A stretch of 64,000 bases of DNA, from assembly GCA_951406725.2 (NCBI GenBank), contig OX597835.1:41044001-41108000 (forward strand). The letters are read 5' to 3'. The notes beneath the pieces are model-generated. The model saw only the letters and a program-made list of their open reading frames with translations, was not told where the DNA came from and ran no database searches. The translations under genes and the position numbers were made by a program. This document shows positions 30,312-32,105 of the stretch, in pieces (position 1 is the first letter of the stretch; each line of letters opens with the position of its first letter). The DNA comes from Octopus vulgaris. Its lineage: Eukaryota.

Positions 30312-30919
30312 GTAAGTCAGTTAAGTCGTAGTTTCAATACACGTCATCTCGTTTATCACCATTTCATTCGTCACCGACGACCCAGGACAACACACGATTA
30401 ACACTGAATCATGTTACGCTTATCACAGATTGATCTGTGATAACACGGGTCAGCTATCAGTCAAAAACTTTCATTTTCTTGTAAAAACATACCTCAACAA
30501 CTAATCACAATGCTCAGCTATCCAAAATGCACTGACTATCGGTTGTGTTTACATGACCTTTCGAAATCTCAAAGCTTCGAGATAATGCATGATTAATTCA
30601 AAATAATGTGAATAAATAAACATTACATTTGACAGAGTAATCTGAAGGCTAAAGGGATAATGATTTATATGCATCAGTAATATATACATACATTAAATAT
30701 TCTACTTGTTTTATGTCCAAACTGGCTGGATCTGGTCTCTCACACCTACTCTACAATGCCATCCTGAAAATAACAACCACATCATTGAAATTTTAAAGCT
30801 TATGAGATAATGCTTGATTAGTTCCAAACAATGTGAATAAATGAGCATAACGTTTGGCTGAGCAATCTGAATGCTAAAGGTTACCCCCCCCCTCCATGAT
30901 AAACAAGGCTAGATGTATT

Positions 30920-31365
30920 ATACTGCATTATTTACATTATTTACTTTTGACGGATGTTTGTCCTGATCTTGTTTGTTGTTAATACAATGTTTCGGCTGAT
31001 ATACCCTCCAGTCTTCATCAGGTGTCTTGGGGAAATTTTGAACCTGGGTTCTCATTCCTAAGGCATTTTTCGATATTATTATTGTTCAGGTCACTGCCTG
31101 GAATCGAGCTCAGAATCTTGGGGTTAGTAGCTCTTGCTCTTAACCGCTCACTATACCATATGCCCACAGGCATATGGCGAACCTGGGTTCCCATTCCTAA
31201 GGTATTTTCTGATGTTATTATTATTCAGGTCACTTCTTGGAATCAAACTCGGAATCTTGGGGTTAGTAGCCCGCACTCTTAACCACTACGCCATATGCCC
31301 GTGGGCATGTAATGTAATTATGTAAATAATGTACATAATTCCTCATCTCTCAAATAAAGAACTGT
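30920..31365 (-). mobile_element. tRNA-headed tandem element carrying a hammerhead motif (SINE/retrozyme-like)
   Basis: Minus strand: two tRNA-like heads (A box TGGCGTAGTGG, B-box-like GAGYTYGATTCC) at ~31300-31229 and ~31165-31090, then ACAC-CTGATGA-..-AGCC-GAAA-CATT at 31026-30981. Confidence 0.65.
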
Positions 31366-32105
31366 ATTTTGTATTACACTAGTTGTCAGGATTGCATTTT
31401 AATTTGGGTCCCTTCCTACTTCAACATTTTCATTTCCAAAAATTAGAATCAGATTAGATTATCAACTAAATAAATTAGAACTGACTGACAGGTAATACTA
31501 TGGACTGTTTTTTTATTCTTTTACTTGTTTCAGTCATTGAACCAAGGCCATGCTGGAGTACTGTCTTGAAGGATTTTAGTTGATCCTATTGATCCCCCTA
31601 GCCCTAACCCCTGCACTTATTTTTAAATCTTAGACTTAATGATCTCTGTAACAATCCAAAGTTATGCAACATAAACACAGACACCATTTTATTAAGTGCT
31701 GTAAATGTTCACACAGACACAGAAGACTATCTCCCCCACTACATCCACAAATGTTGCAGGCTTCCACCTAGTTTCCTTCTAATATTTTTACTCCCAAGCA
31801 TTGGTCAACTTGAGATTATAATAGAAGATATTTTTCCAAGGTGGGACTGAACCTGAGACCACATGGTTATGAAGCAAACTTCTTTACCACAATTTACCCA
31901 TAAAATTTCTATTTTGAGCAACTTTCTAACTCACTCTGCTGCATTTTTCTGAGAATTTTGGTTCAACTTTTTCTAGAAATTGAATTCATTATTGATATGC
32001 TGATAATGGTGATCTTTGACATTGTTTGGGGAGGACTGTAATCAACTAAGTCCACTCCTCTCCACTCCCTCCCCTATATATGATTGATACATATATTATT
32101 ATTGT

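Follow-up and report, generated by a model that had tools for sequence, protein, structure and literature searches.

A decayed octopus insertion that is very probably the pseudo-LTR of a Penelope/Poseidon-type retroelement with a tRNA-like head

Anatomy of the insertion

The stretch of Octopus vulgaris DNA analysed here (the window) is 64 kb long, and the features described below lie on its minus strand unless otherwise stated. It holds a compound of two head-bearing units and an inverted arm, flanked by an 11-bp target-site duplication that was read directly from the sequence (left copy, 30914..30924, plus strand; right copy, 31370..31380, plus strand; one mismatch between the two). The head-bearing units started at 31300 and 31165, and had 109 nt in common that were 85% identical, at a spacing of 139. 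Unit 2 (30926..31165) was a complete pseudo-LTR (pLTR) without its tail, i.e., with head, AAT tract, ORF start, hammerhead, and a tail-less 3' end. Its tRNA-like head (31087..31165) aligned best with tRNA-Arg among the six amino-acid types sampled, and carried an A box broken by a 4-nt insertion (31158-31144) and a B box with a T-to-C change (31109-31100). The head was followed by an (AAT)n linker (31073..31086), a tract whose length is highly variable among copies, and by the inferred start codon of an 835-codon ORF (31053..31055), which lies inside the pLTR, 5' of the hammerhead, and whose downstream frame aligns with the N-terminus of a relative, P0007. The unit ended at 30926..30944 with the nearer of the two discrete 3' ends of the family.

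Upstream of unit 2 lay a short inverted head fragment (31166..31179, plus strand), a fold-back at the palindromic 5' end of this unit, and then unit 1 (31179..31300), a partial pLTR of 122 nt with head, AAT tract, and the first ~35 nt of the hammerhead module. The A box of unit 1 was intact (31293-31283), and its B box had a C-to-T change (31248-31239). Beyond it, a leader dinucleotide and a fold-back of the first bases of the head (31301..31308, plus strand) led into the inverted arm (31309..31369, plus strand), which consists of the 3' end of the element with its ~25-nt tail and a few further bases. This tail is the true 3' terminus and was present in the window on the inverted arm only (31340-31364, plus strand). 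Two inverted pairs resulted, one of 20 nt with 95% complementarity (31160-31179 and 31289-31308) and one of 18 nt (30927-30944 and 31322-31339). An earlier note, made from the letters of the window alone, had described two heads, their 5' inversions, a hammerhead, and a 3' motif inverted near 31322 on this strand, and all of these pieces were found there, the hammerhead at 31026-30981. Its description of two tandem units was right in that both bear a head, although only unit 2 is whole, and that without its tail. Because the 11-bp duplication flanks the whole compound, this was likely a single insertion event, running from the tail-less unit through a fold-back, a jump to the partial second unit, and another fold-back to the tailed inverted arm.

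The minimal type I hammerhead motif of unit 2 (30981..31026) had the anatomy defined in the passages available of PMC4209133. Stem I (31026-31022 and 30985-30981) was followed by CTGATGA (31021-31015), an unpaired A, and stem II, and GAAA (30993-30990) was followed by a palindromic helix III; the predicted cut falls after 30986. Across the family, the hammerhead of the unit has an unpaired base after A9, a G10.1-C11.1 pair, a 5-bp helix I, and a palindromic helix III, and the same marks are listed for minimal PLE hammerheads in those passages (PMC4209133). The ribozyme is thus of the minimal PLE type, not of the canonical Schistosoma type to which it had first been likened. Compared to the family consensus, the window copy carried three G-to-A changes, at 31012 (stem II), 30988 (the palindrome), and 30983 (stem I). 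An intact copy was predicted to fold with stems I and II at -13.6 kcal/mol, versus -5.7 kcal/mol and loss of the palindrome for the window copy. The consensus core is thus foldable, and the window copy, with its stem changes, is inactive; both had been anticipated. The predicted minimum free energy fold of a dimer did not recover the catalytic dimer form, and Rfam did not score the motif as a hammerhead; hammerhead and tRNA-like head were identified by motif anatomy and alignment. Cleavage would occur only as a dimer or with the help of protein, and since the cut would fall inside the ORF, the hammerhead likely limits the message rather than makes it. Cleavage as the start of translation, an idea drawn from the abstract of PMC13725137, was rejected, since the first ATG remaining after the cut lies downstream of the point where protein homology begins.

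Other parts of the window held similar motifs. Two minimal-hammerhead-like motifs, 285 nt apart, were seen in other repeat families (6863-6905 and 7148-7185, both on the plus strand), and a head-to-head inverted pair at about 8540-8930, with one hammerhead-like motif per arm (8666, minus strand; 8764, plus strand), is probably another PLE pLTR insertion.

The family and its ORF-bearing element

The 2.8-Gb genome of the species itself contained at least 4,097 candidate copies, and among the 40 that were scored, the best full-length matches had 85 to 91% identity. The intact 44-nt hammerhead core, the consensus of which the earlier note had predicted exactly, had 955 exact matches in the genome compared to 0 for a reversed control. 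We therefore conclude from the copy and core counts that the pattern in the window is far beyond chance. Defined from 30 copies, the unit is ~266 bp long and consists of a 76-nt head, (AAT)n of very variable length, a ~150-nt hammerhead module, and a ~25-nt tail. Head and hammerhead co-occurred in other copies, as foreseen: the module was found downstream in 60 of 70 copies selected by their head, and the head upstream in 18 of 30 copies selected by their hammerhead core, being absent from the other 12. Several headless copies (L045, L053, and L153; L050 and L055; L052 and L156) began at the (AAT)n tail of other repeats, which suggests AAT microhomology or an ATT-type target choice. In addition, many copies (L086-L115) had cleanly lost segments from inside the pLTR, which would fit frequent template jumps by the RT.

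The head was compared with 27 distinct tRNA sequences of six amino-acid types from the same genome. The three best alignments were all to tRNA-Arg genes (48 of ~73 positions identical, z of 7 to 8 against shuffles), while Ala and Cys reached 46, and the isotype of the head is therefore tentatively given as tRNA-Arg. Its A and B boxes fit the consensus of type 2 Pol III promoters, and its cloverleaf is decayed. Neither Rfam nor ARAGORN scored the head as a tRNA, and Rfam returned only chance snoRNA scores. Elsewhere in the genome, 26 matches to a tRNA-Arg D-arm motif were seen at C2:211887752-211907143, many of them ~206 bp apart, i.e., a tandem tRNA array.

Eight loci had sequence in common upstream of the head, and its translation was the end of a Penelope ORF. 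A search of the genome with this ORF end gave 2,667 candidates. In 26 of 30 ORF-end loci, the head directly followed the ORF stop and a ~25-nt spacer; two of the remaining loci kept only the first 5 nt of the head, one its later part, and one had no head. Farther upstream, module or tail ran into the ORF start in 5 of 25 loci. The exact junction of tail and ORF occurred 56 times in the genome, and 19 of 30 examined continued into the ORF. In one locus (L161), a single continuous stretch held the head, the module, and the ORF start, and another (L124) was near full length. The ORF of the element was found to have a pLTR at both ends, as in PLEs with an endonuclease. A full head before the ORF start was seen in only 1 of 30 junction loci, and in two loci (L135 and L143) an ORF end lay upstream of another ORF start, a layout that needs a template jump or read-through from outside; both observations count against the explanation we prefer. 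By sequence, the ORF stop is followed by a ~25-nt spacer and the head; next come (AAT)n, the ORF start, the minimal hammerhead, and the tail, and then the ORF. The element is ~2.9 kb long.

The column majority of 39 natural segments gave one open frame of 835 codons from the ATG just 5' of the hammerhead, and it is the frame across the tail that aligns with the N-terminus of P0007. A natural open stretch matched RVT_1 (E=5.5e-10), and DKG, YxDD, and GIY-YIG-like motifs lie at codons 296, 536, and 726, respectively. The endonuclease piece had no Pfam match, but it aligned to the C-terminal region of Pfam-positive PLEs. The zinc finger of the linker that joins RT to endonuclease, a feature of Neptune and Nematis and present in L177 and L180, was absent from the tRNA-headed family. 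The closest protein relatives (P0001-P0013) were 60 to 72% identical, and in a quick tree, which contained no curated reference members, the protein grouped with P0001-type proteins in a set holding an Anolis protein, apart from the Neptune-type. A search of the same genome for other Poseidon-type families as a control found the tRNA-headed family itself in 30 of 30 matches. We conclude, with a probability of about 0.95, that the unit is the pLTR of a PLE, and the stretch in the window is taken as one decayed insertion of the pLTR of a Penelope/Poseidon-type element. An autonomous PLE sharing the 3' ~120 bp, for which the earlier note had suggested looking, was thus found, although it is the entire unit, including the head, that forms its pLTR. 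A Neptune-type family was rejected as the partner, as the unit was present in 0 of 25 top GIY-YIG loci (mostly 781-codon ORFs). This young Neptune-type family, seen in L177 (945-3287), L178, and further GIY-YIG matches, has many intact 781-codon ORFs and is possibly still active.

Marks of insertion agreed with a Penelope-type element. The 3' ends of the module peaked at unit positions 240-241 (74 copies) and 265-266 (118 copies), and a shoulder was seen at 231-239. Of 96 head-to-head pairs, 76 had the tail on one end, 15 on neither, and 5 on both, and inverted PLE arms with the tail on one end are drawn likewise in Fig. 2 of PMC8557442, the part considered here. Flanks of 27 of 40 head-to-head compounds shared at least 7 nt, whereas in shuffled pairs 1.8 did so on average (maximum 5). 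Together with the ORF-linked heads, these marks supported the previously proposed mobilisation by Penelope enzymes, as judged from genomic sequence. In the mechanism we propose, the RT-endonuclease of the element would nick both strands of an AT-rich target, and copying would start at one of two internal sites on either side of the tail; the RT of an anole Poseidon starts in vitro at two internal sites bounding the tail, according to the passages available of PMC11167929. Copying begun in the first pLTR would run out at the 5' end of the RNA and yield short copies resembling SINEs, and the palindrome TGCCC-AC-GGGCA, formed by leader and head, would let the cDNA fold back and jump templates, giving the inverted and repeated heads of the window.

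The 5' boundary and the Pol III question

In the genome, a head 24-mer had 3,293 exact matches and an ORF-end 24-mer 914. We took the first 70 matches to the head on contig C1, a set that keeps three pairs resembling segmental duplicates. Of these, 56 matched only 0 to 7 nt of the leader, i.e., the 0 to 7 nt upstream of tRNA +1, 14 continued 30 to 60 nt into the ORF end, and none stopped at -8 to -29; as the search pattern begins at +2, copies truncated within the head fall outside this sample. Upstream of the solo heads lay an inverted piece in 41, plain flank in 14, and a direct repeat in 1. Random truncation is disfavoured, as it would not end four-fifths of the copies inside an 8-nt stretch while leaving the following 50 nt almost empty of ends. 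The sharp boundary points to an RNA 5' end there, as initiation by Pol III would give. The RNA would have begun at about -6 relative to the head, with the A box some 14 nt further on, and such a start would let the cDNA end fold back, giving the observed arms. From this boundary and the two boxes, we consider it rather probable that the head set the RNA start as an internal Pol III promoter.

We also looked at whether the sense strand is free of T runs. In 2,957 columns there were 16 T3 runs and no T4, compared to an expectation of 5.6 T4 by mononucleotide shuffles (P=0.0035) and, in the ORF, of 2.9 by synonymous shuffles (P=0.029). T4 occurred 9 times in the 2,343 nt of the Neptune-type ORF. 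A control set of 26 ORFs with at least 400 codons, taken from 80 metagenome loci with relatives 28 to 49% identical, had T4 in 25 cases and lacked T5 in 11. TTTT ranked 13 of 256 four-mers under an order-2 model, and G4 was also absent (P=0.30). The absence of T4 lends weak support to a Pol III that would read the whole ORF. The sole control ORF without T4 (L288, 3477-4895; 473 codons) had a T-rich pLTR region and no head. The Phe content of the sister clade (P0001-P0013), where a low value could betray avoidance of T runs, gave no signal (2.82% versus 3.08% in 53 others). An A/B pair was found within 300 nt upstream of 0 of 12 hammerhead sites in 11 control loci (one site had no upstream sequence), and the head is therefore not general to the clade. 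A tRNA-like A/B-box segment was seen in one metagenome locus (L292, about 3017-3070), 480 nt upstream of a Poseidon-type ORF fragment with no hammerhead between them, and is possibly an unrelated SINE.

RNA-seq came from three unstranded runs of one study and was dominated by read-through, with 76 to 81% of reads running into unrelated flanks. In these runs, depth rose about twofold at the head, much like DNA copy number, and no pile of read starts was seen at the head or at the cut site; no back-joints were among the best-supported joints listed. A search across sequencing runs listed no RNA data set holding the unit, which is present in five organisms.

Several other explanations were weighed. 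Transcription could be by Pol II, from a promoter of the element or by read-through from the host, with the head only marking a processing site or a strong RT stop (an RNase P-like cut or hairpin arrest) that makes the sharp 5' boundary. The promoter of the studied Drosophila Penelope has been compared with Inr/DPE-type internal promoters of LINEs (in the passages available of PMC2377424), RNA made by Pol III, being uncapped, serves poorly as a message, partial tandems exist, and 18 of 56 solo copies had no leader match at all. However, the other 38 matched 1 to 7 nt of the leader, bases that would be lost if the RNA were cut exactly at +1, although fold-back or chance could account for some of these matches. 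The cloverleaf has decayed to the point that neither ARAGORN nor Rfam recognises it, yet both promoter boxes are intact, and an RT would presumably run into the structure at its 3' side rather than once past it. We regard this explanation as unlikely. Less likely still, a tRNA-derived SINE inserted into an ordinary Poseidon pLTR could be carried as an inert passenger. Head and (AAT)n do resemble a short SINE with its tail, 12 of the 30 hammerhead-selected copies lack the head, with several starting at the AAT tail of other repeats, and the control relatives have none, but the copies that stop at the 5' edge of the head would be left unexplained, and we give this account very little weight. The head likely arose by SINE insertion either way, and the point at issue is its use.

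The unit could also be a separate, non-autonomous, Pol III-driven family of SINEs or retrozymes with its own masters, parasitic on a Penelope element, as the earlier note had it. Solo copies number in the thousands, with about four solo heads for each ORF-linked one; no T4 run occurs in the unit, which means that a solo copy, if intact, could serve for transcription and renewed copying; and one head-to-tail array of 4 to 5 units (L021) exists. Against this, the whole unit belongs to the ORF-bearing element. Furthermore, a comparison of 181 units (50 ORF-linked and 131 solo) found three non-CpG variants at like frequencies (p=0.47, 0.82, and 0.62), and only 2 of 26 variable columns differed with p<0.05 (one CpG, one gap column). 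Divergence outside the variable columns was 4.4% for ORF-linked and 3.8% for solo units, values that lie below the true divergence since the units were picked for similarity. As solo and ORF-linked copies carry the same variants, no separate SINE lineage was seen. The units of this array, the one multi-unit head-to-tail array found, share private mutations and thus reflect local amplification; 1 of 70 head-selected copies was classed as tandem and 41 as inverted, and the window holds one hammerhead. An independent family is therefore quite improbable in our judgement. Among 70 listed matches to a 679-aa relative, none spanned it without stops, and the tRNA-headed family therefore appears extinct; a divergence of 4% would correspond to about 11 million years, as a lower bound, at the rate quoted in the accessible part of PMC13282606.

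Returning to the Pol III promoter, the coding RNA may also have been a product of Pol III, a tentative step further with the odds against it. We likewise put forward as possible, though doubtful, the fuller account in which an autonomous Penelope swapped Pol II for a captured tRNA-derived Pol III promoter, purged T-runs from its 2.5-kb ORF, and became its own SINE.

Known systems and significance

In the parts of PMC11167929 considered here, the PAc Poseidon of Anolis carolinensis is like the octopus element in having a single RT + GIY-YIG ORF that starts inside the pLTR at the hammerhead, a cut site inside the ORF, two 3' ends that define a tail, no linker zinc finger, and partial tandem and inverted insertions. 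Unlike PAc, the octopus pLTR starts with a tRNA-derived head with A and B boxes, most octopus copies are pLTR-only and end at the head, and the tail is ~25 nt versus 30 to 40. Like the minimal type I PLE hammerheads (PMC4209133, in part), those of octopus are mostly single motifs away from ORFs, although helix II has 5 to 6 bp versus 7 to 8 bp and octopus cleavage is only predicted. The unit also resembles animal non-LTR retrozymes, which the accessible passages of PMC7229834 and bioRxiv 10.64898/2026.07.22.740005 present as short units with type I hammerheads and a link to the pLTRs of PLEs. However, these are defined as tandem repeats with at least two hammerheads that give circular RNAs, whereas the octopus copies lie dispersed, for the most part head-to-head, and are identical to the pLTR of the autonomous element; the accessible part of the bioRxiv text makes no mention of tRNA or promoter. 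Schistosoma Sm-alpha (PMC6765202) likewise has a Pol III-type promoter followed by a hammerhead, but consists of non-coding tandem repeats with an active hammerhead and, in the described passages, no ORF-bearing form, whereas the octopus unit is ORF-linked. The TRIMp3 elements Helenus, Ajax, and Cassandra, with tRNA or 5S heads in their LTRs (PMC10886601, in the passages available), are similar in bearing a small-RNA-derived Pol III promoter in a terminal repeat, with a proposed origin by SINE insertion; they are non-autonomous LTR elements, whereas the octopus head sits in an ORF-bearing one. PLE hammerheads, tails, and inverted arms have thus been described, as have retrozymes tied to pLTRs (PMC7229834, as above), and a 2026 octopus repeat annotation (PMC13282606) gives class totals only, with no mention of hammerhead or ribozyme in the part of its supplement available.

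No tRNA-headed pLTR was found in the literature searched, with subscription papers and repeat databases outside the search, and the unit may already be catalogued as an octopus SINE. The octopus SINEs OK, OR1, and OR2 of Ohshima and Okada (1994) reportedly have tRNA-Arg-derived heads, with OR2 ~270 bp long, and they would thus be similar to the unit in size and in their tRNA-Arg-type head. A different tRNA-headed repeat in the window (about 7690-7840) bears a CORE-type motif at 7754-7764, which is absent from the pLTR unit. This repeat is a better candidate for the published OR2, listed as a CORE SINE in PMC4758252, than is the unit.

If the autonomous element did take up a Pol III promoter, each of its end-repeats would be promoter, ribozyme, RT landing site, and mobile unit at once. 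Pol III promoters are known in non-autonomous elements such as SINEs and TRIMp3. According to the passages available of PMC10886601 (2024), the autonomous partners of TRIMp3 must use Pol II. A Penelope element that has an ORF and yet carries a tRNA head in its pLTR puts this rule to the test and raises the question of how an uncapped RNA would be translated. The sharp 5' boundary and the fold-back arms are a genomic record of how PLEs make inverted ends, and repeat libraries could split the tRNA-headed family into SINE and Penelope entries. The family offers a concrete route by which a PLE can lead to repeats like SINEs and retrozymes, seen at a stage when the short form had not yet become separate.
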